Source: an uncultured Bacilli bacterium
GTDB taxonomy: Bacteria > Bacillota_I > Bacilli_A > RF39 > UBA660
DNA length: 64,000 bases
Direction of reading: 5' to 3'
Assembly: GCA_947588685.1 (NCBI GenBank)
Contig: CANPYM010000022.1
Span: 309-64,308, forward strand
Below are positions 8,551 through 64,000 of this stretch, one piece after another. The notes under the pieces were generated by a model that saw only the letters and a program-made list of their open reading frames with translations, had not been told where the DNA came from and ran no database searches. Position 1 is the first letter of the stretch. The number at the start of each line of letters is the position of its first letter. The position numbers and the translations under genes are program-made.

Positions 8551-9502
8551 TACTTTTATCTTTCTTTGTATGATTAATCATAATGCTAAGGGCAACTAAT
8601 ACTAAGCCACATCCCAAAAGAACTGGAACAGGCCACCATACTTGACCCGTTTGCGGTAGATGAGGTAAATTATCCTTATATTTATTTGTAATAATAAAGG
8701 TATTACCATCTCTTTTAATTTCAACATCATATAATTCGCTTATATTCTTCTCTTCTACTTGATAATCAAAAGCATTATCCAAGTTTTCCCAAGTAAAAGT
8801 CCAATTATTAGATGCATCTAATTTTACTTCTTTATATTCATCATAATCATCACTATTTTTAGGAGCCTTTAACAAAGATATAAGTATTTCGTTAGGTCTT
8901 GATGCTGTATGTCCTTTGTCATCCCATACTTTAATTACTTCAATATTAACTAAATTATCATAATCAGCTAAAGCATATTTAGGTTCACTTTTAACATTAT
9001 AAACCCAATTATCACTAATAAGGCTAGGCAAGCTAATAAAGTAATTAATTGGTGTATATAACTGTACGCCATAAACAAGGGGCGTACCTCTAACCAAATA
9101 TAAGCCTTGCTCACATTCATCAAAATTGATAACACCAGCATCATCCGTCACGCCGGATTTAGTTGGCTCAATTTTATTAGCATCAACAAAATCAATAAAA
9201 GTCTTTGGTAGATTTTTCCATTCATTTTCACTTAATTGATTAAAATCGGTATTTAAAGATGCATATGAATCATTAATTGTCATCGCACCATTTTTATCAA
9301 TATCGGCTACTTTATAGATACTAAAGTTTGTCTCACTTAATGGCGTACCATCAGTAGTTTTAAACTCAACCGTAAACGTTACAGAACTATTTAAATCTAC
9401 TTGTGGTGTTTTATTAGTTACATATTCAAGTGCCAAAACATTAGATGTAACAAATAAAAGAGCCATTAAGAACCAAAAACAATAGCTTATTTTTTTCTTC
9501 AT
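8537..9502 (-). CDS. Minor/basal pilin with CnaB-type domain and LPQTG sorting signal
   Basis: Signal peptide; WVYNVKSEPK (pilin motif WxxxVxxxPK); IKVWDD...RP...WTFTWENLD...YQVEE CnaB domain; LPQTG followed by TM and basic tail. Confidence 0.9.
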   Translation of the reverse strand: MKKKISYCFWFLMALLFVTSNVLALEYVTNKTPQVDLNSSVTFTVEFKTTDGTPLSETNFSIYKVADIDKNGAMTINDSYASLNTDFNQLSENEWKNLPKTFIDFVDANKIEPTKSGVTDDAGVINFDECEQGLYLVRGTPLVYGVQLYTPINYFISLPSLISDNWVYNVKSEPKYALADYDNLVNIEVIKVWDDKGHTASRPNEILISLLKAPKNSDDYDEYKEVKLDASNNWTFTWENLDNAFDYQVEEKNISELYDVEIKRDGNTFIITNKYKDNLPHLPQTGQVWWPVPVLLGCGLVLVALSIMINHTKKDKSIDEE

Positions 9503-9516
9503 CGAATCACCGCCTT

Positions 9517-10395
9517 TTATTGAATTTTCTTTTTATCTTTTTTCCTATGATATTTAATATTTTTATTATAAAAGAAGAACGTTATTAATAGGAGTAATAA
9601 AATTATAATAATTACTACCATTAAGGTTATTAAATTTTTCCTTTGAACATTTTTGGAGATTTTCTTTGGATTATCTTTTTTAGCCGCATTTAATTCAGCA
9701 TCGTTGAATTGTTTTCTATGAGCTCCAATTAATAACCGGTGGGTATTAATGCCATAAGGGGTACAAGTTATTAAAGTAAGATAATCTTTATCATCATATA
9801 TCTTCAAAGAAGATAATGCGTCAGGTTCCACTACTTTAACATCATCAACTTCATAGACTAAATCCAAATTAGCTGTTTTAAGATAAATAATATCGCCTTT
9901 AGCTAATTTATCTAAAGATGTAAAAAGTTTAGAACTAGGTAGTCCTCTATGCCCCATCAAAACCGTATGGGTATTTTCACCACCTATCGGTAACGATGAT
10001 CCTTCAATATGACCAATTCCTCTTTGTAAAACACCTTCACTAGTTCCATGATAAACAGGAAGGACTAAATCTATTTTAGGAATGGTAATAATACTCATTA
10101 TATCTGTATTACTAAACTTTAATAAATCATCGTATTCGTCATTGGCATCAGCATTAGTTATATTGCGATTATCCTCATAAAGCTTTTCATTATACGTTTG
10201 TGCTTCTTTTAGTAATTCATCATTTAAATCGTCATCCTTATTAACGATATCTAAATAATTAGATATTGTTTTTGATTGATTTAAAGACGATATATAATTA
10301 CTCAAAAGAGGATATAAAATTAAAGATACACCTACTACTAATAGCACTATAATGATGACATCCAATAATCTATCTTTTAATCTGCTTTTTTTCAT
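9517..10395 (-). CDS. Class C (pilus-polymerising) sortase
   Basis: GIGHIEGSSLPIGG, GHRGLPSSKLF and LITCTPYGINTHRLL; N- and C-terminal TM helices. Confidence 0.95.
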   Translation of the reverse strand: MKKSRLKDRLLDVIIIVLLVVGVSLILYPLLSNYISSLNQSKTISNYLDIVNKDDDLNDELLKEAQTYNEKLYEDNRNITNADANDEYDDLLKFSNTDIMSIITIPKIDLVLPVYHGTSEGVLQRGIGHIEGSSLPIGGENTHTVLMGHRGLPSSKLFTSLDKLAKGDIIYLKTANLDLVYEVDDVKVVEPDALSSLKIYDDKDYLTLITCTPYGINTHRLLIGAHRKQFNDAELNAAKKDNPKKISKNVQRKNLITLMVVIIIILLLLLITFFFYNKNIKYHRKKDKKKIQ

Positions 10396-10404
10396 TTTAA
10401 TAAT

Positions 10405-11946
10405 CTATTCATGCTTTCTTTTAATAATTAAAGTAATAGATAAAACTACTAAACTAATACCAAGTGCATAAATAACAATAACCCCAATACCACCGGTTGA
10501 TGGTAATAATATTCCAGGAACATTTTTAACGGTTATAGAAACCTTACCAGAAGTAAGATCTCCTTTTACTTTTTCGTCACCATCAAGCGCTACTGTAAGA
10601 TCCTTTAACTCGGAAGTTAAAGAGCCATCAACGCTTAAAGTATCTTCAATTACTAATTTTAAATCAGAAATAGAATTATATCCTGGTAGAGTGTATGATT
10701 CATTAAGATAATAAGTTCCAGAAGCTAGACCAGCAATGGTTATCTTACCATCTTTCGTTTCTAACTCTGTTGCTGAAGCGATATCATCTTCTAAAACCCA
10801 AGCACTAATAAAGCCATTTTCAACTTTGGCATATTTTTTAACACCATTTTCATATTTATATAGCCTAAACTTAACACCAGATAAAGTCTCATTATTTTTA
10901 CTATTTATTTTATTAATTTCTAATTGATAAGTATATATTGTTGCTTCATCTTGAACTGTCTTTTGTCTGTCACTAGCATGATCAGCATTAGGATTACTAG
11001 AATACTCTAACATAGCTGTATTCATATTTCCTATTAATCCTAAAGCAGGATTTAATACCGTTGCATCATAAGTAACAACTATTTTAGTTTCCTCTGTAAT
11101 ATGGAAAGATGCATTAAGTGTAGCTAAATCATCAATAGCAATATCAAGAGTATCATCGTTAGTAATGGTAAACATATCTGTTGCATCAACGCCATCAATT
11201 GTTACTTTAAGACTACCTTTAATATAGTCTAACCCACTAGGTAAATTATCAATAAAATGATAGTAATATGTTTTATAATCAGCATAGGTATCTGGTAAGG
11301 TTCCCGTTAATTTGAATGTTACTAATGCCCCACTTTCGGCACTTATAGTATCATGGAAATCTTCTAACCCATGATGGCTTACTTGCTTAGTAAGCGTTGG
11401 CGCATCAGCTTTCACTTTAATAGCTGTATCATTAGTTACTTTTAAAATATATCTAGTAGCTGCTGAACCAACTTCAATAGAATTAACATCCTTAATGAAA
11501 TAATATCCAGCATCTAAACCACTAATAGTATGTTTATTTTCACTAAATGATGAATTAACAACCTTATCATCTTGTAAGTATTTGCTAACAACTTCAGCAA
11601 ATTGCTTAATTTCATCAGCATCATCTGAAGTAACAATTTCACTTAATGTCAAAACAACATCATAAGCATCGCTAGCTTCTATAAAATGATCTTTTAAAAG
11701 GCTATCTTGCTTTAACGCCGTAAGGAAAGCACTTGGATCTTCAATACCCGTTCCCCAATCAATATTACTAAGCACACCATCATGAACATTACCTTTAAAT
11801 ATTTGCCAAGCGCCATACGTATGCACACTACTTGATCCCGTTATTTCAATTTTATAGTCGCTAAGAGCACGAGAAAAAGGAACGATAATACATAAAGAAA
11901 TAATCGTTACAATAAATAATGTGGCTCGATTAATAATTTTTTTCAT
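10405..11946 (-). CDS. Major backbone pilin (isopeptide-forming fimbrial subunit, SpaH/EbpB-like)
   Basis: Signal peptide; IKVKADAPTLTK; FIDNLPSGLDY; NTAMLEYSSNP; E-box-like YYLNE...PGY; LPSTGG sorting signal with TM and KRKHE tail. Confidence 0.9.
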   Translation of the reverse strand: MKKIINRATLFIVTIISLCIIVPFSRALSDYKIEITGSSSVHTYGAWQIFKGNVHDGVLSNIDWGTGIEDPSAFLTALKQDSLLKDHFIEASDAYDVVLTLSEIVTSDDADEIKQFAEVVSKYLQDDKVVNSSFSENKHTISGLDAGYYFIKDVNSIEVGSAATRYILKVTNDTAIKVKADAPTLTKQVSHHGLEDFHDTISAESGALVTFKLTGTLPDTYADYKTYYYHFIDNLPSGLDYIKGSLKVTIDGVDATDMFTITNDDTLDIAIDDLATLNASFHITEETKIVVTYDATVLNPALGLIGNMNTAMLEYSSNPNADHASDRQKTVQDEATIYTYQLEINKINSKNNETLSGVKFRLYKYENGVKKYAKVENGFISAWVLEDDIASATELETKDGKITIAGLASGTYYLNESYTLPGYNSISDLKLVIEDTLSVDGSLTSELKDLTVALDGDEKVKGDLTSGKVSITVKNVPGILLPSTGGIGVIVIYALGISLVVLSITLIIKRKHE

Positions 11947-11969
11947 TTATACCACCTTCGCTATTATTG

Positions 11970-14900
11970 TTATGCTTTTTTCCCGTGACGAAGTTTTAGG
12001 AAAAGACCTAATCCTAAAATAAAGGCACCTAAAACATAATATAATACTATTCCTTTGCCGCCCGTTTCTGGTAAATCAACTAGAGCAGCATCATTAGTGA
12101 TTGTTATAGAACCATTTGGTAGAGCAACCCTAGCATCAGGATATTTTTCTCTATCAATTTTGTTTTCCGCACCAAAATAGAAAATAATTGGTTTAGAAGC
12201 TAAAACATAACCTTTAGGAGCTTCTCTTTCAACTAAAATGTAGTAATTACCTTCCTCTAAACGCCAATTCATAGCTTTTTCAATCTTAAATTTACCATTT
12301 TCATCAGTTACAACATTCCAATTTGCTTCACGATAAACATTATAGCCATCTATCGTATCTGTCTTTTCAAGTGGTGAGTCATCCGGTAAAACGATATAGA
12401 AGTCAAACTTGGCATTAGGTAAAAACTTAGTTTTATCTTTACTATCAACTTTATTGATTGTAAGTTCAAAGGCTGTACCGCCACCGCCACCAATTGTTGT
12501 ACTGACATCTAAAATCTCATCATACGTATCACTAGCGCGATTAACATTACCAATTGTTGCTTGATTAGTAACCGATACTTCTTGACCAGTTATATAGGTT
12601 AAAGCATCATATTTAATTGTTAAAGCCTTATTATCCGGTACAATAAGTTTAAAGACATTTTCATCATTAGTTTTTTCAACTCTATACGTCTCTTCTAAGC
12701 CTTCTTCATTAGTTACTTTTATGGAATCAAAATCGATTTGAATACCGGTACTGGTATCAGTTATAGTTAAAAACTCGCTATCTTTATCTAAATCAACAGC
12801 ATTTGGATTAATCTTTAAAGTAAAATGAATTAAGTTACTTTGTCCTTCTTGTTCTGCATCCTTTAAAACTCGAGCTGGAAAGAATGGTACTTCACTTTGG
12901 GCGTGAAATTGTGCTCCTGTTGGGTCTTCTGAAGTTGTCATCATAGCTGTGTTTTTAACAATAGTATCATTATCATCGCTAGCATGTTCTTTTAACCAAC
13001 TATCTTTCGCTTTAAGAGTATAGACAAAATCAATACTATCAATCTCCATACGACTATATAAATAATTTTCTGGATAGTCAGAAGCTACTATATCATGAGT
13101 ACTTTCTTCATGAGAAAGGAGAAAAGAACGATAATTAGCTTGAATACGGCCTTTTTTAAGATCCGGATCATTATATTCTTCTGGACGCCAACGGTCACCT
13201 GTCTCATCATTGCCAACATAATTAAATGTTAAATAAGTACCATCTTTAAACTTATAGATAAGCTTTAATGTTCCTTCAACATATTCAAAGCCATCATCAT
13301 AATCATCGACAAAAGTAACAGAATCACCCCAAGGAGTATAAAATTCTTCACAAATTCTTTTAATAAAATAATAACTTTCAGTATCATCAACATCAATAGA
13401 TACAGTGTAATCAATTGTATTTTTTCGATTATTTACTACGGCCTTTTTTTCCAAATCATTACCATTGGCAAAATAAACTTCGTTAAAACTTTCATAGTTA
13501 TTATATCTAAGATCTGCATTATTGGTAATTCCAACTTTCAATAACTCCTCAAAAGTTAATTTTTGGTCACTGCCATAAAAGGTAACACCATCAGATAAAT
13601 CAATTTGATATTCAAATTTAAAGAATCGATTTTTACCATAAGAATAACTTGAAGTTTCCTTATCTTTATCATAGCCAAAAAAATAAGATGTAGCTGTTGG
13701 TCCTTCATTAAAAATTACCGAATTCATATCTTTTGGATCATATGGAGCGCCATTTATTAACTCTTCATTTTTAATAACTTTAAGTTGTTCTAATTTATTT
13801 TCGTATTTTGCGATTATAGAATCAGAATTTGTTATGGAAAACATTTCATAATCTTCTATATCAGTGGCATATACTTTAACATCACCCTTAATTAATTGAC
13901 TATTTAATGAGTGACTTGCTAGTTCATAATATACATTTAAATAGTCATTAAGCCAAAAATTAAAATAAGTTCCTGCCTTTACTTCAGCATATATTCTATA
14001 TGTAAGTGTTTTTGTGTCAGGATTCCATTCTTGCTTTTTAATAATTGAAACAGTATTAGGAGCAACAGGCGAAACATAAAGAGTTGTAAACCCTCCAGTT
14101 GATGAAGGTGTTTTACTTCCATCTAGTCCTATAACATTTCCACTAAATTCAGCTGCATTTATTACTGTCGCATAATATGTACCCGTTTGAGTTTCAACAA
14201 ACTCCGTTTTGTAATCATAATTAACGATTAACTCATCACCCGCTGATAATTGTTTATATTGACTTGTTTCTTTAATTTTAATCTTAAAATGCATGTTATC
14301 AATACATTCTACCTCATAATCATCAGTCGTTAAATCTATTTCTGTTCCTCCATGTTTTAATTTAACATTGATAGATTCTGTTACTATTTTTATTTTAATA
14401 GCATCATTATAATAAGGTAAAATATTGTCTTCTATTTCAACGTCATTAAGTGTACCACTAGATACTTTAGCTGTTACTTGGTAGCTTAAAAGTTGTTCAC
14501 TTCCATTATATGAGCCTATTTTTTCAAGTGATAAGTCTGGATTACTATCTACTTGGAAAGTAAATTTGTGATCGTCATTTCCAAAATTAAATGATTCATC
14601 AGGATTCCCTGTTACAGCTCTTACAATAGCTGGTAGATTAAACTCTAACGATAAATCATTTGAAGCTCCTAAGGCTTGTATACCTTGTTCAGTAAAAGTA
14701 ATTGTTAATAAGCCATTATCATCCACACTATAAGTACCTAAAGTGACAGGAGTTCCCACAAGCGTAACCTCCAATTTCTGGTCAACTGTCGGTGGGACAT
14801 TAAAGTTTGCTGGAAACTGATAGGTCATTGTATGATTATCAGAGTTAGGTGAAAACTGAGCGCCAACAGCGCCTTGTTCTTTAAAAACTAACTTAATATT

Positions 14901-15161
14901 ATATTTACTTCCAACGTGTAACGTATTATCAACCACAGTGTTTCCTTCATCATCAGTAATCTCAACACCACTCAAAAAATTGGCAAGATTATCGCTATCA
15001 ATCTCTGCTTCTCTTGTCATCATTAAATTAAATAAACCATTAGTTTTAATACTATTTTTAATATATTTTACTATACGCCCAGTTGGATTAGGGTAAATAC
15101 TAAAGCACCCAAAAACAAATAAACTGATTGCTAGTATTAAAAACGGTATTTTCTTCCTCAC
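11970..15161 (-). CDS. Large LPETG-anchored tip pilin/adhesin with multiple Ig-like folds
   Basis: Start moved to GTG 15161 behind SD GGAGGT. N-terminal collagen-binding-like Ig fold, C-terminal SpaA-like domain with E-box (YILVEREAPKGY), then LPETGG, TM and basic tail. Confidence 0.88.
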   Translation of the reverse strand: MRKKIPFLILAISLFVFGCFSIYPNPTGRIVKYIKNSIKTNGLFNLMMTREAEIDSDNLANFLSGVEITDDEGNTVVDNTLHVGSKYNIKLVFKEQGAVGAQFSPNSDNHTMTYQFPANFNVPPTVDQKLEVTLVGTPVTLGTYSVDDNGLLTITFTEQGIQALGASNDLSLEFNLPAIVRAVTGNPDESFNFGNDDHKFTFQVDSNPDLSLEKIGSYNGSEQLLSYQVTAKVSSGTLNDVEIEDNILPYYNDAIKIKIVTESINVKLKHGGTEIDLTTDDYEVECIDNMHFKIKIKETSQYKQLSAGDELIVNYDYKTEFVETQTGTYYATVINAAEFSGNVIGLDGSKTPSSTGGFTTLYVSPVAPNTVSIIKKQEWNPDTKTLTYRIYAEVKAGTYFNFWLNDYLNVYYELASHSLNSQLIKGDVKVYATDIEDYEMFSITNSDSIIAKYENKLEQLKVIKNEELINGAPYDPKDMNSVIFNEGPTATSYFFGYDKDKETSSYSYGKNRFFKFEYQIDLSDGVTFYGSDQKLTFEELLKVGITNNADLRYNNYESFNEVYFANGNDLEKKAVVNNRKNTIDYTVSIDVDDTESYYFIKRICEEFYTPWGDSVTFVDDYDDGFEYVEGTLKLIYKFKDGTYLTFNYVGNDETGDRWRPEEYNDPDLKKGRIQANYRSFLLSHEESTHDIVASDYPENYLYSRMEIDSIDFVYTLKAKDSWLKEHASDDNDTIVKNTAMMTTSEDPTGAQFHAQSEVPFFPARVLKDAEQEGQSNLIHFTLKINPNAVDLDKDSEFLTITDTSTGIQIDFDSIKVTNEEGLEETYRVEKTNDENVFKLIVPDNKALTIKYDALTYITGQEVSVTNQATIGNVNRASDTYDEILDVSTTIGGGGGTAFELTINKVDSKDKTKFLPNAKFDFYIVLPDDSPLEKTDTIDGYNVYREANWNVVTDENGKFKIEKAMNWRLEEGNYYILVEREAPKGYVLASKPIIFYFGAENKIDREKYPDARVALPNGSITITNDAALVDLPETGGKGIVLYYVLGAFILGLGLFLKLRHGKKA

Positions 15162-15291
15162 AGCGTTACCTCCAGCTTCAAAAAGTCGATAGTAATGTGT
15201 TTTTATAGGTTGTAAGAACAAAACATAATTAAAAATAGTAATGCATATAGATAAAACGTAGGTATTATTAAAACACTCGACTACTATATAA

Positions 15292-15320
15292 ATTATACCT
15301 GAAAAAATAAGATAAGTAAA
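15292..15320 (-). promoter_or_regulatory. Putative SigA promoter of the pilus operon
   Basis: TTTACT-17 nt-TATAAT on the minus strand, about 130 nt upstream of the adhesin start. Confidence 0.5.
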
Positions 15321-15461
15321 GGAAATAATTCTTAAAGTGTCAAATGAAATTGCGAATATTTAAATTTGCGCTATTTTAATAGTACTACTTATAGATTGAA
15401 ATAAACATAAAGAGTGCTTTTTTAGGAACTCTATGCTATAATTAGTCTAGGAGAATGATGT

Positions 15462-16310
15462 ATGGAAAAGAAGCAAAATAAAAAAGGAAAAACACCTATT
15501 ATTATATTAATTATTGGACTTTTACTTGGTATATCCCTAATCACCATAGGTGTATTGAAGCAAAACGAAGGTAAAGAAAAGGAAAGTCAAGAGAGCATCC
15601 AAGAAAAACTTGATCTTGAAAAAAAGAATCTTGAAGGGAAAAGACAAGAATTAGAAAAAGAAATAGAAAATAGTCTATCTAAAGAGAAAGAAAATCTTGA
15701 AGAAAAAAGGGAAAATCTAGAAAAAAAGGGAATTAAGTATAGTACGTTTGCTACTTATAACGATGGCGAGAAATATGATTTAAAAATCATTACTGAAGCC
15801 TTAGACCCTAGCTTTAATTATTGTAGTTTTGACGAATATAAAAGCAATGACTTAACTTCTACATACTGTTCTTTATCTAACCAAACTGATGATAACTCTA
15901 AAAAATTAAATACCATTAATAGTGTTTTATCTAGTCCTGTTAGTTTATGTAACCTTGATGTATATAAAAACAATGACTTAACTTCTACATATTGTTCATA
16001 TCAACAAAAATTAAGTAGTTTTACAAATCTTACTAAAACTAATAACACCGCTAAAAGTATGCCATTTTATATCTTGGGTGGATTTATCGTTATAGTTAGT
16101 TTTATCATTGCTACTATTTCTTATGTAGTAGCAAAAAGAAAAGATATTATTTCCTACACTTTAGAGCAAGCTAAACCGCTTTACGAGGAAGGAATGAAAA
16201 TGACTGAAAAGATCAAAGAGGAAAATCTTCCACCATTATGCCCACATTGTGGCGCTCCAACTAACAAAAAAATTGTATGTGAATATTGTGGTTGTAAAAT
16301 TGTATGGTAA
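15462..16310 (+). CDS. Two-TM membrane protein with coiled coil, 42-aa Cys-containing tandem repeat and C-terminal zinc ribbon
   Basis: TM at the N-terminus and near aa 200-225; repeats CSFDEYKSNDLTSTYCS and CNLDVYKNNDLTSTYCS; CPHCG...CEYCG. Confidence 0.8.
   Translation: MEKKQNKKGKTPIIILIIGLLLGISLITIGVLKQNEGKEKESQESIQEKLDLEKKNLEGKRQELEKEIENSLSKEKENLEEKRENLEKKGIKYSTFATYNDGEKYDLKIITEALDPSFNYCSFDEYKSNDLTSTYCSLSNQTDDNSKKLNTINSVLSSPVSLCNLDVYKNNDLTSTYCSYQQKLSSFTNLTKTNNTAKSMPFYILGGFIVIVSFIIATISYVVAKRKDIISYTLEQAKPLYEEGMKMTEKIKEENLPPLCPHCGAPTNKKIVCEYCGCKIVW
15822..15998 (+). repeat. Intragenic direct repeat, 126-nt period
   Basis: caatgacttaacttctacata(c/t)tgttc occurs twice, 126 nt apart. Confidence 0.85.
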
Positions 16311-56539: not shown

Positions 56540-56570
56540 GTTATCACCACATCAATTATAACATAACATA

Positions 56571-56604
56571 AAAAAAAGTAGTAGTTTAGATTGCAACTAC
56601 TACT
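56571..56604 (-). terminator. Terminator at the end of the T7SS locus
   Basis: AGTAGTAGTT-8 nt-AACTACTACT plus T run on the minus strand, overlapping the DUF4176 stop. Confidence 0.8.
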
Positions 56605-57542
56605 CCATTTTCATCAAACTTATAGTTAGCTAATGTTGTTTTTTTTTCCTTACGAGCTGTATTATCAGCTATAACAACGCCATTTTCATCAAATTCTATG
56701 TCTTTCAATATATCCCAATTACTTGGCTCTAACTCTGTTGACTCTCTTTTTTTATCATAAAAAGTTAAAAAGGGGTTTTTAACGGATAGCTTATCAGCTA
56801 TAACAACGCCATCTTCATCAAATTCATAATTAGAAGATGATGATGAATCCGCCGTTTCATCAGATATAACGATGCCGTCCTCATTAAATTTATATTTTGA
56901 ACTAGTTGGTGTTGATGAAGTTGCTGTACCATCAACTATAACAACGCCATTTTCATCAAACTTATATTTTGCAACAGTTTGTGATTGTGGTGCTGCAGAA
57001 CTATCAGATGTAACAACACCGTTTTCATCAAATTCATAATCTGATTTAGCTTGTAATTTAGTTGTAATTGTGCCGTCAGCTATAACAACGCCATTTTCAT
57101 CAAACTTATATTGGCCATTTGGTCTAACTTCAGCAGGTGCTGTGTTATCAACTATGACAACACCATTTTCATCAAATTTATAATTACTATCAGGTTTAAC
57201 TTCAGTAGATGCTGTATTATCAGCTACGACAACGCCATTTTCATCAAACTTATATTGGCCGCTTGTTCTAGTTTCAGTAGGTGCCGTATTATCAGCTACA
57301 ACAACACCGTTTTCATCAAACTTATATTGGCCGCTTGGTCTAGTTTCAGTAGGTGCCGTATTATCAGCTACAACAACGCCATTTTCGTCAAACTTATATT
57401 GGCCGCTTGGTCTAACTTCAGCAGATGCCGTATTATCAACTACGACAACACCGTTTTCATCAAATTTATATTTACTATCAGGTTTAACCTCAGTCAATGT
57501 CGTGCCATCAAAGACAACAACACCATTAGCGTCAAATTTGTA
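56586..57542 (-). repeat. Coding tandem repeat: 72-bp/24-aa period for units 1-10, irregular for 11-13
   Basis: Tyr codons start at 57542, 57470, 57398, 57326 and so on; units 3 and 4 differ at 4 of 72 nt. Confidence 0.95.
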
Positions 57543-57875
57543 ATTATTAGACTCTTCAACTCTAACCACTTCTTTTTTAACTGGTTTTTCTTGTTCTTTT
57601 GTAACTAAAGGTTTACCTGTTTTTAATAAACTAGTGTTTAGTTTTTTATATTCATCATTTTTATAGCCATCAAATATTACTTTTTTAACTGTTGCATGGT
57701 CAAAATGTAATGTATCATCTAAAGAACTAAGGCCATCTGGATATTTAACACCAACATAATTGCAATCAGTACTATTCTCTTGCTCTTGTAAATATCCAAT
57801 TATCATAATATCATCTTTATTATTTTTTATTGAACATATCGTTCCAATTGGTAGATATTTTCGACCCTTTGCCAT
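56586..57875 (-). CDS. DUF4176-domain protein with 13 YKFDENGVV repeats
   Basis: N-terminal YLPIGTICSIK....IMIIG....NYVGVKYPDG...FDHATVKKVIFDGY is the DUF4176 pattern; the C-terminal two-thirds is a repeat array. Confidence 0.85.
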   Translation of the reverse strand: MAKGRKYLPIGTICSIKNNKDDIMIIGYLQEQENSTDCNYVGVKYPDGLSSLDDTLHFDHATVKKVIFDGYKNDEYKKLNTSLLKTGKPLVTKEQEKPVKKEVVRVEESNNYKFDANGVVVFDGTTLTEVKPDSKYKFDENGVVVVDNTASAEVRPSGQYKFDENGVVVADNTAPTETRPSGQYKFDENGVVVADNTAPTETRTSGQYKFDENGVVVADNTASTEVKPDSNYKFDENGVVIVDNTAPAEVRPNGQYKFDENGVVIADGTITTKLQAKSDYEFDENGVVTSDSSAAPQSQTVAKYKFDENGVVIVDGTATSSTPTSSKYKFNEDGIVISDETADSSSSSNYEFDEDGVVIADKLSVKNPFLTFYDKKRESTELEPSNWDILKDIEFDENGVVIADNTARKEKKTTLANYKFDENGVVVAI

Positions 57876-57894
57876 ATATAAATCACACCCTTTT

Positions 57895-58206
57895 CTATTT
57901 TATAATTTCTCTTTGCTTTTCCACGGAATTAGTTGGCAATAAGCTGACACCGCCCGATAACTCATTTTCTACAGCGTTACATAAATTAATACTTTTATTT
58001 ATCCAACTACTCATATCAGATAACTCATTGTATATTTCATTAATTCTTTTAGTAAATTCATTATAACGAGAACGATACGAAAAGTCTGATGGGGCATATA
58101 GTCTTTGAGCTATACCCCTAGCATATCCTACATATGTTTTAGAACTATCAACACTAGATAAAACTACAGTTTCTAAAGAACTTCTATTTACAACTAATTT
58201 TGTCAT
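57895..58206 (-). CDS. WXG100-like helical hairpin protein (no canonical WXG)
   Basis: 103 aa, helix-turn(APSDFSY)-helix, SD AGGAG; last of the six-gene array. Confidence 0.6.
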   Translation of the reverse strand: MTKLVVNRSSLETVVLSSVDSSKTYVGYARGIAQRLYAPSDFSYRSRYNEFTKRINEIYNELSDMSSWINKSINLCNAVENELSGGVSLLPTNSVEKQREIIK

Positions 58207-58207
58207 A

Positions 58208-58495
58208 CTATCTCCTTACCTGATTTACGATTTCATCATAAGCATTCGCACAATTGATAAGATATTCTCCATACTTATACAAATCTTTAGCAAAATTCAT
58301 ATAAGTTGGCTTATTCCCTAGCACTGCTGCCGAATATTTTTCAGCAGTAGGTCCAACCCACTCTCGTGTTTCTGTAGGAATTTTTTCAAAACGTGTAAAC
58401 ATTTCGTTATATGTTAGCTTTAGCTCTTCAACTAGCTTTAGTATATCATCGCCACATTCACGAATTCTTTTAGTATCTACTTTTATCTCTTCCAT
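58208..58495 (-). CDS. WXG100-family protein
   Basis: 95 aa; IKVDT N-terminus, central WVG motif and C-terminal helix ..ANAYDE; SD AGGAGG. Confidence 0.85.
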   Translation of the reverse strand: MEEIKVDTKRIRECGDDILKLVEELKLTYNEMFTRFEKIPTETREWVGPTAEKYSAAVLGNKPTYMNFAKDLYKYGEYLINCANAYDEIVNQVRR

Positions 58496-58505
58496 ACGTC
58501 CTCCT

Positions 58506-58534
58506 AAAAAGAAAGACTAGCTGACTAGCTAATC
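58506..58534 (-). terminator. Internal terminator in the WXG100 array
   Basis: GATTAGCT-agtc-AGCTAGTC (one G-U) followed by TTTCTTTTT on the minus strand, between the 4th and 5th small genes. Confidence 0.75.
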
Positions 58535-58546
58535 CTCATAATTAAT

Positions 58547-58831
58547 CTACATCACGCTATTTATAGCTTTCTTAACATTAGAAATCTTTTGATTTATACT
58601 AGGAATACAAGTGTTTTGAAGAAAGTCTCTTTCAGCAACTAATCGATTATAAATAGAGTTAATCTTTCCTTCATCAGCTTTCGAATCATCTAAAGAGAAA
58701 CTACTATCGACTTTATCTTTTGACGATTCTAGAAGAGAAATAGCATTATTTAAATAACCGATCATTCGATAAATTTCATTCTTAAAATACTCATAATTTC
58801 CTTTATCGCGTATTAAATCTGATGTTTCCAT
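58547..58831 (-). CDS. WXG100-like small helical protein (Lap/YwqH-like candidate)
   Basis: 94 aa, two long amphipathic helices around FSLDD; 5 nt from the upstream stop. Confidence 0.55.
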   Translation of the reverse strand: METSDLIRDKGNYEYFKNEIYRMIGYLNNAISLLESSKDKVDSSFSLDDSKADEGKINSIYNRLVAERDFLQNTCIPSINQKISNVKKAINSVM

Positions 58832-58836
58832 TTATT

Positions 58837-59325
58837 CTATTTTGTTTCAGTGTAAACAGTGGAATTATCACTAAGTCCTGATGTTGAACTAGAAATATTT
58901 CCAGCAAAATTTGCAGAACTTGTTTTCCAAGCGTTTTCAACATCAGCTAATTTGTCAGAAAAAGCTAATAAATCGCTAATTAATGCACTACAATAGCTTT
59001 TTACAGATTCAACATAAGATACAACTGCTTGTTGTATTTCTTCACTTTTATAAGCACCTGATGCATCAGCGTTAGCATCGATTTCACCTATTTTTGCTTG
59101 TAAATTACTAACAGATGTTCTTATTGCTTCACGCATTGTAGGAACTTTAGCAGCATTAATACCAACGACATCTAAACCGCCGCCACCAAAAAGTGATCCT
59201 AGAGATCCTAAAATACCGCCACCATCTGCAGCTGTACGTGTAGCAGCTCTTCCATCCATTGCTGCTTGTGCAGCTTGTTTTGCATCAAATTCTGATACTG
59301 TTTGTGTTGCTTCCCAATTTGCCAT
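58837..59325 (-). CDS. WXG100-like protein with about 50-aa Ala/Gly-rich N-terminal extension
   Basis: 162 aa; extension ending GGGILGSLGSLFGGGG, then hairpin with GAYKS turn; SD AGGAGG. Confidence 0.65.
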   Translation of the reverse strand: MANWEATQTVSEFDAKQAAQAAMDGRAATRTAADGGGILGSLGSLFGGGGLDVVGINAAKVPTMREAIRTSVSNLQAKIGEIDANADASGAYKSEEIQQAVVSYVESVKSYCSALISDLLAFSDKLADVENAWKTSSANFAGNISSSTSGLSDNSTVYTETK

Positions 59326-59336
59326 AATTATCCTCC

Positions 59337-59645
59337 TTACTCACCAATCATATTTTCGTCCTGATTATAATAATAGTTTGCTAACTCTGATAGTCTTGCA
59401 TCCAAATCATTATACTCAGCCGTTAAATCGCTTTTTATTAAATCGATTTCAGCTTGTAACTGCTCCTTAAATCTGTCACATGAAACTCCTACCCAACCAC
59501 CGTCAACAGCTGTTACGATATTTTGGTATTCAGTATCAAGGTTTTCTGACATTGTTGTTAAAATTTGAGTTTTTAAATTTTCTTTATAAGTGTTCATTCC
59601 TGAACTTGATACACCAATGTCTAAATCTCCAATTCCTAGACTCAT
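59337..59645 (-). CDS. WXG100-family protein
   Basis: 102 aa, central GGWVGVSCDRF and C-terminal YYNQD (YxxxD); SD AGGAGG. Confidence 0.85.
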   Translation of the reverse strand: MSLGIGDLDIGVSSSGMNTYKENLKTQILTTMSENLDTEYQNIVTAVDGGWVGVSCDRFKEQLQAEIDLIKSDLTAEYNDLDARLSELANYYYNQDENMIGE

Positions 59646-59646
59646 A

Positions 59647-60003
59647 CTACAATTCCTCCTTCATATTTTCTTTTTGACGGACTTGCCTTTGAGCCTCATT
59701 TATCAATTCAGTAGCTTCAACTTCAAGCTTACTATAATTGCCTTTTAATTTTAACAAGTCGTCATTATAAACTAAGATATTTTGGTTAACAGTATTTATA
59801 GTTGGGACAAGTTGCTCAAACTTGCTTCGAAATAAATCAGCTTCAGAACTAACATAATATTCTCTCGTTTCACGAATTAACATTTCAATAGCATTAGTTA
59901 TCCGCTTACTTTTTTCCGCATAGTCTATAACATCAACCATAAGCTTATCTAGTTTCGATGTCGATACACCAAGTGTATTAGAGCTATTATCCACTACTAT
60001 CAC
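59647..60003 (-). CDS. WXG100-like protein (Y-x-S turn)
   Basis: Helix-EYYVSSEADLF-helix and C-terminal YSKLE (YxxxE). The true start may be GTG 59994 behind AGGTGA. Confidence 0.7.
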   Translation of the reverse strand: MIVVDNSSNTLGVSTSKLDKLMVDVIDYAEKSKRITNAIEMLIRETREYYVSSEADLFRSKFEQLVPTINTVNQNILVYNDDLLKLKGNYSKLEVEATELINEAQRQVRQKENMKEEL

Positions 60004-60097: not shown

Positions 60098-61771
60098 TTA
60101 TTTACGATTTGTTAGAACTACATTAGTAGGTTTCATACCAACATTTTGAGTGTTATATTTTGTTAAGTATGAAATTTCATCATCACTTAAAAGATTACTA
60201 GTAGATAAATTTTCATCCGACATATAGTAATTATTGTACATCGTAAACACATCTTGTGATGTAATACCTAATTGCTGAGCAAGACATCCGAAGAAAGTTT
60301 GTTGCACATTGTCATAAAAAGCAATAAAATCACTATTATACTCATCTCTAGAACTATCGTTATATTTAACTAAACGATTCATATCATTTTCAAATAGTTT
60401 TATTAATCCAAAAATTGACTCTAAACTTTCTCCTTTATTCCCTATAGCATCTAATAAATTAGTATAGAAAATTTTAGTCAAAGTTTGAGCGGCTGAACTA
60501 TATAGGGAAAACTCGTATTTATATGGCACTTCTATCTGACAATTATCATAAAAGGCTTTATTTCGACCATAAATTATTTCAAAGGAAAACATCATCTTTA
60601 TTATTTCTTCGACGTCTTCTTCACTATTTGCATTAAAAATTCTTAAAAACTTATTTAAATCAGGTTGCAAAGATAATCTTGGAATAGTTAGTTCAGATAC
60701 ATCATCACGGAGAATAGTAGCTAAAGTTAATGTATCAATAGTTTTCATATATTCGGGATAAACAATATTTTCTCCACTAACATCATTATATACATTCATC
60801 AACTTTTCAGCGCATCCCTCAACAAACCATTGATAGCTTAAAGCATTAACTGGTAAATCAGCCCATTCATAATATATTCCCGTGTTTTTTGTGTATCCTT
60901 CATGTTCTTTTTCTTCATTACTGCTCGCTTGAATTAAATGGTTAGTCTCATGACATGCTACTTCATAAAAGAAATCCATGCCGCCAAAAACTTCAATAAC
61001 ATTTATATTCAATGACAATATCTTATCATCTTCAACCATTACCCCATTACCTTGACCATGATTACACAAAATTTTTAATTCCTGTAAATTTTTATCAAGT
61101 TGATTAACATCAATATTTTGTTCATAATCTTCAGCCAAATTTTTATTAATTGTCGCTACAACGGCATTAAAAGCTTGTTCAAAATACGAACTTGAAAATT
61201 CTTCATATAATGCCCCAGTATAAGAAGCCATATATGCATTGTTATTATTAACAACTATTTCATGTAATTTATTAGCATCAACTTGACGATTGTTAATAAT
61301 TTTTAAATCACTACTTGATTCATATTCAACCATTGAATTATATTTGGCTAGAGCATCTTGGATATGAAAAAATTCACTATTTGCATAATTAGTATGATGC
61401 CCTGAAAGCAAATTCCTAAATGCCGACGTATCAACACCATTAAAATTTATTTGTTGATTATACATTTCTAAATTAGCAGTGCTTGCAGTATCCTCTTGTG
61501 GCTGAATAGGTGTAGCAGTAGAACTTGTCATCATAGAAGAGTCATCTACTGCTACTTCAATATTTTGATTATTTTCATCAATAGTATTTCCCTCATTATC
61601 ATATATTTCTACATAATATGATCCTTCATCAGCCCGAGCTGATACTTTAAAAACAGTTGCCGTTGAAACACTAAAGCCAATTATTGTAGCTAGCGAAATA
61701 GCCATTAATTTAATCCTTTTAGTTCTATTTTTAAACCATTTTACATTTATATTTCTTATCACTATAATCAC
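60098..61771 (-). CDS. Secreted or N-anchored protein with HEXXH zinc-metalloprotease-like motif
   Basis: Basic and hydrophobic N-terminus ending ARA-DE; ACHETNH (60938-60952) and downstream FVEGCAE. Confidence 0.7.
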   Translation of the reverse strand: MIIVIRNINVKWFKNRTKRIKLMAISLATIIGFSVSTATVFKVSARADEGSYYVEIYDNEGNTIDENNQNIEVAVDDSSMMTSSTATPIQPQEDTASTANLEMYNQQINFNGVDTSAFRNLLSGHHTNYANSEFFHIQDALAKYNSMVEYESSSDLKIINNRQVDANKLHEIVVNNNNAYMASYTGALYEEFSSSYFEQAFNAVVATINKNLAEDYEQNIDVNQLDKNLQELKILCNHGQGNGVMVEDDKILSLNINVIEVFGGMDFFYEVACHETNHLIQASSNEEKEHEGYTKNTGIYYEWADLPVNALSYQWFVEGCAEKLMNVYNDVSGENIVYPEYMKTIDTLTLATILRDDVSELTIPRLSLQPDLNKFLRIFNANSEEDVEEIIKMMFSFEIIYGRNKAFYDNCQIEVPYKYEFSLYSSAAQTLTKIFYTNLLDAIGNKGESLESIFGLIKLFENDMNRLVKYNDSSRDEYNSDFIAFYDNVQQTFFGCLAQQLGITSQDVFTMYNNYYMSDENLSTSNLLSDDEISYLTKYNTQNVGMKPTNVVLTNRK

Positions 61772-61812
61772 CTAATACAATTTTAACACATAAAGTTAAT
61801 AAACTTCATCTT

Positions 61813-62067
61813 TTAAATCAAAACAATGCTACTCCCATTTCTTATATTTGTTTCTCTAATCAATTGGTTTGTACCATATATTTCGCCTGTTTCACGATCG
61901 TATAATCTTACTTTATCATCAGGATTATATTCACCGCTTGTAAGTTCAAAAACAGATTTTTTTAGAAGAATTATTACGTTACATATCCTAGCATTTATGG
62001 GTAAATATACATTATATATTTCGTCAATTGTAGGTACATATAAACGAACGGCAAATTTATCATTCAT
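61813..62067 (-). CDS. Ubiquitin-like T7SS accessory protein YukD/EsaB
   Basis: 84 aa; beta-grasp pattern VRLYVP...YNVYLP...I..V...L...LIRETNIRNGSSIVLI; overlaps the essC stop. Confidence 0.8.
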   Translation of the reverse strand: MNDKFAVRLYVPTIDEIYNVYLPINARICNVIILLKKSVFELTSGEYNPDDKVRLYDRETGEIYGTNQLIRETNIRNGSSIVLI

Positions 62068-64000
62068 TTTCTTCTTCCTCCTCAACCATGTATTTTATAA
62101 TTGTATGATTTCCTTTAACGATTGAATAACCAATGCAAGGGAAATTCATTTTTCTTTCTTCAATAGTAATATTTGGAACATTAATAACCAACTGATTAGC
62201 AGCATCTTCGGCTAACCATATACCAGTTGAATTATCAACGTTAGATTGATACCACAAATCAACTTGAATATTTTTATAAGATGATAACACATCTATCAAA
62301 ACCACTTTTGCATTATTAATTGAGGTAATATTAGAAAATAATCTATTTAATAAATCCTTACTATTGTTATTTAAATACTTTTTATAGGCACCAATTCCCA
62401 AGAAAAAGTAAACTGTAACATCACTAGAATCTCTACCCTTTACAATTTCGTTATTAACTTTAACAAGATTACTGTCATAGTTGTCTTTATAACATTCTAC
62501 ATTTTCAATATCCTTTTCATAAGCTTGAACAAAATCAAATACTTTTACCTTTGTATTTTCCAGTTTTGAGCATATCCTTATAAGTGAATTAATAAAACTC
62601 ATTCGTTCAGGCGACATAGCATTAGTTACAATTTGGGTAAATGTATTGGTACTAAAGTCAAAATTAACTATTTCCTTTGTCGTTATACTATAACCAATTG
62701 GTACTTCTTTAAGATCTGTTAGTTTATCATAGAATTCACTAGCAATCACTTTGTTTGGTATTGTAGGTATACGTTTAGCCTTAATTTTATAAGCGTTATT
62801 ATATGTTTCACTAGCCCGCATAATAAATTCGTTTATTTGCTCTTTGGCTACATAGAAAGCTGTTTGAAATTCATATATTCCCTTATCCAAGAAACAAAGT
62901 CCACGGCCAAAAAATTTAGATGGAAATAGACCCTTTGGAGCACCTAGTTGGTTTCTATAATCCTCATCGTTTGGTAATTGTAGACAAAGTTTATTAGGGA
63001 AATTTTGTACTTGTCTAGATTTAAGAGTTAAAGGTGAAAGTTCACTTATAATAAATACTAATCCATATCTTGAACCATCACGATATATAGTATATAAGCT
63101 TTCAGCAAAACGTCCATACGTCTCTGTAAATACCTCTAAATTATTAATTATCGTCACAATTAAAGGTAACTTTTTATCATTGTGTTTAATATATTCTTCA
63201 TAACTACCACCAAAATCAGACATCATTTCTTTACGACGATCTAATTCTTTAAAAAGCATATCAAATATGTCATATACTTTATTTTCTTCATCGATTGTTG
63301 CAATGTCACCAATATGAGGCATCTTATTAAATATTTTTAACGATTCTGTTCCACAATCCACAATATAAAAATTAACTTCAGATGGAGTATGATCAGTAAT
63401 TGTAGATAGAAGAATGGTTGTAATTAAGTTTTCTTTACCACTACCTTGTTTACCTATAATTAAAGTATTACCTTCGTGGGTTAGGTTAAGGTGAAGAAGA
63501 TTTTGCTCTTGTGACGCTGGAACATCATATTCTCCAATGACTGGGTCAATAACATATGGTTGCTTTTGGTAATCATATTTAGTTTTCAAATTAGGGACAA
63601 AAATATTAGCTGGTATGGCATCTAGCCATAATTTATTGGAAACAATATTTTCTTTAACACCCAAATCATAAATATATTTAACAATATTAGTAAGTTGATC
63701 ACCTAAATCTTCAACAGGTGTATCATTTTTTACATTTTCTTTAGCACTCTTGATGATAGTTCCTGAATCATCGATAAAGTTGATTGAGTCGTCAACTTTT
63801 TTAACAATTTTATCACTTGGAATGTATTTGGCTCCAGCCCAACCTGATTGTCCTTTATCAAAAAAGTCATCATATCCTACCTGTAAGTAGAAACGTCCTG
63901 CTTCTTTAATACTTGCTGCATCTGGTTTCTTCAACATTTCCATACTGTCGCCACGATCCTGAACTTTAAGGCAAACCTTAAATTTAGAGTTAGACCATAT
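62060..64000 (-). CDS. essC: Type VII secretion FtsK/SpoIIIE ATPase EssC/YukB (5' truncated by window edge)
   Basis: Frame open to the window end (IWSNSKFKVCLKVQDRGDSMEML, end of ATPase D1); AGRFYLQVG, WLDAIP, GEYDVPASQEQ, GKQGSGK, YIVDCG, ELDRRK and GRGL. Confidence 0.93.
   Translation of the reverse strand: MWSNSKFKVCLKVQDRGDSMEMLKKPDAASIKEAGRFYLQVGYDDFFDKGQSGWAGAKYIPSDKIVKKVDDSINFIDDSGTIIKSAKENVKNDTPVEDLGDQLTNIVKYIYDLGVKENIVSNKLWLDAIPANIFVPNLKTKYDYQKQPYVIDPVIGEYDVPASQEQNLLHLNLTHEGNTLIIGKQGSGKENLITTILLSTITDHTPSEVNFYIVDCGTESLKIFNKMPHIGDIATIDEENKVYDIFDMLFKELDRRKEMMSDFGGSYEEYIKHNDKKLPLIVTIINNLEVFTETYGRFAESLYTIYRDGSRYGLVFIISELSPLTLKSRQVQNFPNKLCLQLPNDEDYRNQLGAPKGLFPSKFFGRGLCFLDKGIYEFQTAFYVAKEQINEFIMRASETYNNAYKIKAKRIPTIPNKVIASEFYDKLTDLKEVPIGYSITTKEIVNFDFSTNTFTQIVTNAMSPERMSFINSLIRICSKLENTKVKVFDFVQAYEKDIENVECYKDNYDSNLVKVNNEIVKGRDSSDVTVYFFLGIGAYKKYLNNNSKDLLNRLFSNITSINNAKVVLIDVLSSYKNIQVDLWYQSNVDNSTGIWLAEDAANQLVINVPNITIEERKMNFPCIGYSIVKGNHTIIKYMVEEEEENE

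Follow-up and report, generated by a model that had tools for sequence, protein, structure and literature searches.

A DUF4176 protein with a tail of thirteen predicted beta-hairpins in a compact type VII secretion-like gene cluster of an uncultured Bacilli bacterium

The window analysed here, a stretch of 64,000 nucleotides from an uncultured Bacilli bacterium of the rabbit gut, encodes a 429-aa protein (P0001) in which a DUF4176 head is followed by 13 copies of a short motif predicted to fold into isolated beta-hairpins. This arrangement is no one-off fusion: P0001 is one member of a large family, of which we count about 190 cluster representatives. DUF4176 proteins were shown to be type VIIb toxin chaperones only in 2025, and the hairpin-bearing family adds a third architecture, a head with a conserved multivalent hairpin tail, to the two size classes published so far. 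We hypothesize that P0001 is a cytoplasmic chaperone or adaptor of a type VII secretion system (T7SS) with a multivalent docking tail, a reading based on analogy to which we give about an even chance of being right.

The features of the gene and of its surroundings are collected in Table 1. The stop codon of the upstream 103-aa gene lies at 57895 and adjoins the likely ribosome-binding site of P0001, and the terminator-like hairpin at the other end reads as the end of the operon. Among the RNA runs searched, none contained the gene of P0001. The stem of this hairpin is built from codons of the last hairpin unit (GGA GTA GTA GTT) together with sequence 3′ of the P0001 stop; Val-Val is written as GTA GTA in unit 13 only, as if the terminator dictated codon choice. 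A search of P0001 for a transmembrane segment or a signal peptide found none, the maximum Kyte-Doolittle score being 0.52 over a 19-residue window, in line with what had been read from the sequence at first.

Table 1. Features of the P0001 gene and its upstream neighbours (positions of the window).
Feature	Position	Strand	Basis or remark
Whole gene, 429-aa DUF4176-hairpin-repeat protein (P0001)	56586..57875	(-)	Intact ORF, ATG 57875, TAA 56586-56588
Likely ribosome-binding site AAAAGGGTG, 10 nt before ATG	57886..57894	(-)	Read from sequence
DUF4176 head, residues 7-77, then helix to ~residue 85; small-type Ltc-like fold (predicted)	57645..57857	(-)	Pfam, AlphaFold2, Foldseek
Helix end and K/E-rich disordered connector, residues 78-111	57543..57644	(-)	pLDDT <50 at residues 88-109
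Hairpin units 1-11, residues 112-361; 12-aa cores YKFDENGVV(V/I)xD alternating with S/T/A/P-rich 12-aa linkers	56793..57542	(-)	Repeat scan, AlphaFold2
Conserved spacer with NPF and W-D-I-L-K, residues 362-392, after unit 11	56700..56792	(-)	Comparison with homologs
Last two hairpin units (12 and 13), residues 393-429; the W...IEFDENG hairpin belonging to the minimal module of the family is unit 12	56589..56699	(-)	Repeat scan, AlphaFold2
Intrinsic-terminator-like hairpin, 12-bp stem, then T run	56565..56606	(-)	Overlaps the last four codons and stop of P0001
Six small helical WXG100-like genes (118, 102, 162, 94, 95, 103 aa), directly upstream	57895..60003	(-)	
557-aa HEXXH protein, 90-aa YukD-like gene and EssC (1534 aa, running off the window)	60098..64000	(-)	
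The 557-aa protein of the preceding row (leader sequence, HETNH), between the YukD-like and small genes	60098-61771	(-)	

By sequence and by predicted fold, the head of P0001 belongs to DUF4176. Pfam PF13780 is matched at residues 7-77 with 65.5 bits against a cut-off of 25 (E 4.5e-18), and AlphaFold2 models the head with a pLDDT of about 90 and a helix at residues 74-85. In Foldseek, the predicted head matches the chains of 9DCS (E 8e-5, target TM 0.66-0.72) and also 9DCR, 9DCT and 9MNO, including the C-lobes of LtcA and LtcB; the conserved C-lobe fold, a four-stranded sheet plus helices as in 9DCS, is present in the predicted model. The function of the domain is no longer unknown, since its small and large forms are chaperones (Ltc) of LXG toxins (Gkragkopoulou et al. 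2025, PMC12478183). These chaperones are dimeric, bind a disordered amphipathic helix in the LXG toxin and stabilise the toxin, and are themselves retained in the cytoplasm rather than exported (PMC12478183). The two size classes span 70-130 aa (small) and 200-250 aa (large), and the coupling of chaperone release to export is named in the same work as an unknown step (PMC12478183). A cytoplasmic location of P0001, suggested before, fits both its want of a signal peptide or transmembrane segment and the published retention of Ltc proteins in the cell (PMC12478183).

P0001 has in common with the Ltc chaperones (9DCS is MQE10_09270 of Streptococcus intermedius GC1825; 9DCR and 9DCT are LtcA/LtcB) the Pfam domain and the predicted fold, a place within a T7SSb-type gene cluster and the lack of an export signal. 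It departs from them in its length, which falls outside both size classes, in the hairpin-repeat tail of 320 aa that it adds, and in its surroundings: genes of the large class are linked to an LXG toxin and those of the small class to DUF443-type immunity genes, but the genome of P0001 carries neither an LXG toxin nor EssB, and no DUF443 immunity gene lies nearby. The client of P0001 must therefore be of another kind, and a chaperone role is an extrapolation, because in a genome without LXG toxin and EssB/YukC the published type of client is absent. In the DUF4176 literature, in a search centred on PMC12478183, we found no description of a repeat-bearing form.

The tail was modelled with AlphaFold2 on the single chain of P0001 with an alignment of 106 sequences. 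Next to the confident head, the model contains 13 separate hairpins of 3+4 residues with pLDDT of about 70-85 (moderate confidence), joined by linkers with pLDDT below 50, and has a pTM of 0.34; the image of beads on a string, offered in the preliminary description, agrees well with it. The same picture of a confident head and separate hairpins was obtained for the 193-aa minimal homolog P0244, likewise as a single-chain prediction. The C-terminal 320 residues are thus predicted to be an acidic, intrinsically flexible tail bearing isolated beta-hairpins.

A regular-expression scan finds 13 cores of the form [YI][KE]F[DN][AE][ND]G[VI]V between residue 112 and the C-terminus at 429, starting at residues 112, 136, 160, 184, 208, 232, 256, 280, 304, 328, 350, 393 and 418. 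The first nine intervals from core to core measure 24 aa each and the last three 22, 43 and 25 aa, so that the 72-nt period claimed for units 1-10 is exact, counting from the start of unit 1 at 57542; Tandem Repeats Finder reports periods of 72, 144 and 216 nt. Our recount also confirms the 4 differences in 72 nt between units 3 and 4. Units 1 and 5 have the linker TEVKPDS in common and differ at 19 nt, the lowest value for unit 1, and units 2 and 6, with the common linker AEVRP.GQ, differ at 7 nt. Both pairs are mutual nearest relatives outside the group of units 2, 3 and 4, which makes plausible a duplication of a two-unit block, as had been proposed, in addition to local duplications (2 to 3 to 4). 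The last unit, thought at first to be truncated, is not: unit 13 has a complete core of 12 residues and is without its linker only, and a hairpin forms the very C-terminus of many homologs too. Elsewhere in the genome (1.16 Mb, 31% G+C), no other ORF of at least 100 aa contains even a single F[DN]E[ND]G, which speaks against a chance occurrence, and none has GPGLPG.

Core and linker differ in how they change from unit to unit. Among units 1-10, the differing codon pairs in the nine codons of the core are synonymous in 115 cases and non-synonymous in 45, against 56 synonymous and 370 non-synonymous in the 12 codons of the linker, a pattern indicating that the cores are kept by purifying selection and that the linkers, in which T, S, A and P abound, drift. 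The same core is found throughout the family: over 190 proteins it reads [YFI][KQE]-F-D-E-N-G-[VIT]-V-[IV]-x-[DE], with F in 98%, D in 96%, E in 83%, N in 86%, G in 100% and the second V in 79%, and this among proteins whose heads are only 30-45% identical. We also considered that the tail might be an inert "bristle", acidic and disordered, whose hairpins have no specific partner and which serves to keep chaperone and client in solution or to make their complex too large for export. The net charge of the tail, -28, would suit such a role, as would the long acidic stretches that many homologs have added and the acidic tail of 350 aa, free of hairpins, in a paralog on contig C2. A passive bristle, however, would not keep F-D-E-N-G at 83-100% over 190 proteins with such diverged heads, nor would it give a synonymous excess confined to the core, and we regard it as unlikely.

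A search of 5.8 billion clustered proteins returned 290 relatives. PF13780 is present in all 120 matches listed of these 290, with hairpin units in those looked at, and every one of the 106 aligned family members has a DUF4176 match. Starting from the repeats instead, a phmmer search with the tail against 1.84 billion representatives gave 220 matches. Among the best 150 of these 220, a local HMM finds the DUF4176 head in 97; of the others, several are pieces of head-bearing proteins, and the remainder are weak matches to true choline-binding proteins (P0181, P0236 and P0237) or to large repeat proteins without the strict motif. The hairpin motif therefore appears almost confined to DUF4176 proteins, and the expectation that repeat and DUF4176 head would occur together in a T7SS setting was borne out.

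The representatives that combine a DUF4176 head with hairpins have 2-13 units, most often 5-6, which puts P0001 at the maximum. Their lengths range from 142 to 471 aa, and the units are mostly spaced 20-31 aa apart by linkers of variable composition. The minimal form (P0244, P0245) consists of the head, hairpin 1, the NPF spacer and then a W..IFK..FDENG hairpin. The NPF element is found in 122 of the 190 homologs, usually after unit 1 or 2; its position after unit 11 in P0001 indicates that, compared with most relatives, the array of P0001 has grown on the opposite side of the spacer. Runs of near-identical units inside single homologs, e.g., P0003, P0016 and P0116, indicate that arrays expand independently in each lineage. 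A subgroup with P0037 and P0104 (L014 9871-11034) is distinguished by close pairs of hairpins at a spacing of 14 aa, a MORN_2 match and a second conserved motif, P-I-G-P-G-L-P-G-Y, and may be nearer to an ancestral packed form of the repeat.

A DNA pattern search for two tandem FDENG units in 400 other genomes of the class found none. Across 40 further genera of the GTDB family to which this genome belongs, DUF4176 was seen in 11 genomes, always in open frames of 94-159 aa. The long-tailed form is thus patchy in the genomes sampled. Most relatives come from metagenome protein sets, and a contig scan with P0001 as the single query protein gave 5 loci. Those relatives that carry a name are "uncultured Bacilli" MAGs, including, by their record names, Hadza human-gut and rabbit samples.

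Regarding known repeats, Pfam scans of P0001 and of 106 homologs gave no match to the choline-binding or Rhs models. MORN_2 (PF07661) has no match in P0001 at E <= 0.1 but is matched by 38 of the 106 homologs (best E 1.7e-13). Judged by these profile matches, MORN_2 is the nearest curated model for the hairpin family. Both have a [YF]-x-[FY]-x-E-N-G-x-[VIL] beta-hairpin and a period of about 22-24 aa; the second half of the P0001 unit is, in contrast, a disordered S/T/P linker, and so no continuous sheet is predicted. Conceivably, the tail neutralises a toxin as a degenerate array of MORN-variant repeats of the YwqK type; P0001 would then be a fused chaperone-immunity factor that protects its producer from a toxic cargo. 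Besides the matches in homologs, the 24-aa period fits the 22-position MORN_2 repeat; MORN-variant proteins bear the NCBI name "YwqK family antitoxin", and YwqK reportedly protects B. subtilis against the LXG toxin YwqJ. We nevertheless consider this quite improbable: P0001 itself falls outside MORN_2, its predicted hairpins are spaced by disordered linkers and not packed into a sheet, and there is neither a recognisable toxin in the nine loci compared nor an LXG domain in the genome.

The preliminary description also compared the core with the YYFDxNG hairpin of choline- and glucan-binding repeats, adding that their paired aromatics were missing. The second point is correct; the likeness is real in the hairpin core and in weak phmmer cross-matches, but the closest Pfam repeat is MORN_2, and the choline-binding models (PF01473, PF19127 and PF19085; Choline_bind_1/2/3) are matched by none of the 106 family members. 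Moreover, the YG repeats form a solenoid of 20-aa units, in contrast to the 24-aa period and flexible linkers of P0001. Were P0001 exported all the same, its hairpins might, like these YG repeats, attach to the cell wall or to a surface polymer. The phmmer search with the tail does reach the true choline-binding proteins named above (E 6e-9 to 1e-5), and one protein, P0214, combines a signal peptide, three units and a transmembrane anchor. The missing aromatics, the missing signal peptide and the finding that DUF4176 chaperones are not exported (PMC12478183) all speak against export of P0001, which we hold to be very unlikely.

P0214 (L013 56-508) deserves mention on its own account. This small protein of 150 aa, unrelated to P0001, has a signal peptide or N-terminal transmembrane segment, three FDENG hairpins and a C-terminal transmembrane segment followed by RKRKK, and its gene adjoins that of glycyl-tRNA synthetase. 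Its hairpins would face outward. Since P0214 appears to put three units outside the membrane, the motif is not strictly cytoplasmic.

The Y-x-[YF]-D-x-x-G hairpin pattern of Rhs/YD repeats (Tse15, PDB 8UXT) is also similar, and phmmer gives a weak match (E 0.004). RHS_repeat (PF05593) is not among the Pfam matches of P0001 at E <= 0.1, and no Rhs match was obtained in the 106 homologs; unlike the Rhs repeats, the 13 spaced units of P0001 are not predicted to make a contiguous, shell-forming sheet. DUF6980, DUF5640 and DUF6705 scored above their cut-offs and were rejected, as these scores are sums of weak repeat matches with 0-1 significant stretches. NCBIfam returned nothing informative on P0001.

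There is a negligible chance that faulty assembly produced the array or that the gene is a pseudogene in decay, for although this is a short-read MAG and repeats fragment unitigs, the units differ from each other by 4-40 nt (divergence that had been put forward from the start as an argument for a genuine array), the longest exact internal repeat is 39 nt, the array is covered without any difference by the unitigs from two rabbit-gut runs, the frame is intact and the architecture is common to about 190 homologs. The number of hairpins changes through in-frame duplication of 72-nt units. One contig of 367 nt from run X3, which belongs to another study, contains an extra in-frame unit of 72 nt adjoining unit 1 (window 57454-57525), with 5 SNPs. 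This is thin but direct evidence of copy-number polymorphism, with 14 units in another strain against 13 in the window, and together with the range of unit numbers across the family it confirms the suspicion that copy number is changing.

For the gene neighbourhood we compared the window with eight further loci from different samples. The same block of six small helical genes (about 110, 105, 160, 100, 96 and 103 aa) directly precedes the DUF4176-hairpin gene in all nine loci, and EssC and a YukD-like gene (84-92 aa) are in the same cluster in all nine; FtsK_SpoIIIE/FHA Pfam matches are present in the homologous loci. A protein of about 535-601 aa with a leader sequence is encoded in seven of the nine, in the same place between the YukD-like gene and the small genes, L003 and L016 being without a gene of that size. 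An HEXXH motif (HETNH) was seen in the copies of the window and of L004, and the protein has neither a Pfam nor an NCBIfam match. In two loci a minimal form of 193-196 aa stands immediately before the long form. No recognisable toxin is encoded in any of the nine.

The wider genome, which is 88.7% complete, was searched for the usual components of such systems. LXG (PF04740) is absent from it and was not visible in the homologous loci either; no YukC/EssB was found, EsaA had no match above cut-off, and WXG100 gave sub-threshold matches only. At this level of completeness the absences are provisional, and the whole looks like a stripped-down type VII system with two EssC genes in the 1.16-Mb genome of a spore-former.

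With these elements, P0001 would serve a compact secretion system of T7SSb-like type as an accessory protein in the cytoplasm. By analogy with the Ltc chaperones, the head (N-terminal 85 residues) would dimerise and would shield part of an exported protein from one of the upstream genes, a segment of hydrophobic or amphipathic character. The hairpins, [YF]-x-F-D-E-N-G-V-V-[IV]-x-D, would present a small hydrophobic face (Y, F, V, V), and we infer that, as short motifs in a multivalent array, they dock on one conserved partner. This partner might be a cytoplasmic component of the machine (EssC or the YukD-like protein) or be found among the small helical substrates. By docking, the hairpins would keep complexes of chaperone and client at the machine, and the chaperone would stay in the cell.

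A more specific version would have the hairpin array couple cargo to motor. The tail would then be a multivalent tether, which docks through its 13 hairpins (26 per dimer) either on the EssC hexamer, at its cytoplasmic domains, or on the YukD-like protein and delivers the six small helical proteins bound to the head. In a system that has neither LXG nor EssB, nor an EsaA above cut-off, such a tether might stand in for the missing membrane adaptors as a soluble element made of repeats; we see this as a long shot. If the hairpins do dock on machine or cargo, they would provide a simple handle on the handover of chaperone-bound substrates to EssC. The motif is easy to test with peptides because it is short, strongly conserved and almost exclusive to the family.

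A different sort of C-terminus is found in 24 of the 190 homologs, including P0005, P0007, P0012, P0016, P0039, P0043, P0058, P0061 and P0089. These proteins end with a long acidic stretch and then (K)KKK[KR]GFF[NGS]FG[RK], e.g., KKKRGFFNFGR, which is absent from P0001. We take this ending to resemble the amphipathic membrane-targeting tail of MinD. By that analogy, it would place those 24 homologs at the inner face of the membrane, fitting a role beside EssC.

One relative, P0184 (L012 710-2509; 599 aa), consists of the first 480 residues of EssC, with FHA domains and the transmembrane region, joined to four FDENG-like hairpins. We rejected it as a genuine EssC-hairpin fusion: it comes from a single contig of 2.9 kb and is most simply explained as a chimera of the assembly or as the remnant of a deletion that removed the inside of the operon.

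The gene order is permuted in L016 (15693-20738), where the six small genes are followed by the DUF4176 gene, EssC and the YukD-like gene, and then by at least five tandem paralogs of 283-304 aa that have no Pfam match. A second compact T7SS-like cluster lies on contig C2 at about 9070-15975 (L001 656..3223 and beyond). Its order is a YukD-like gene (83 aa), two WXG-like genes (92 and 85 aa), a DUF4176 protein of 449 aa and the second EssC (1545 aa). The 449-aa protein is the paralog mentioned above, and its acidic disordered tail is rich in P, E and V and free of FDENG hairpins. SpoIVA is encoded just downstream of this cluster.
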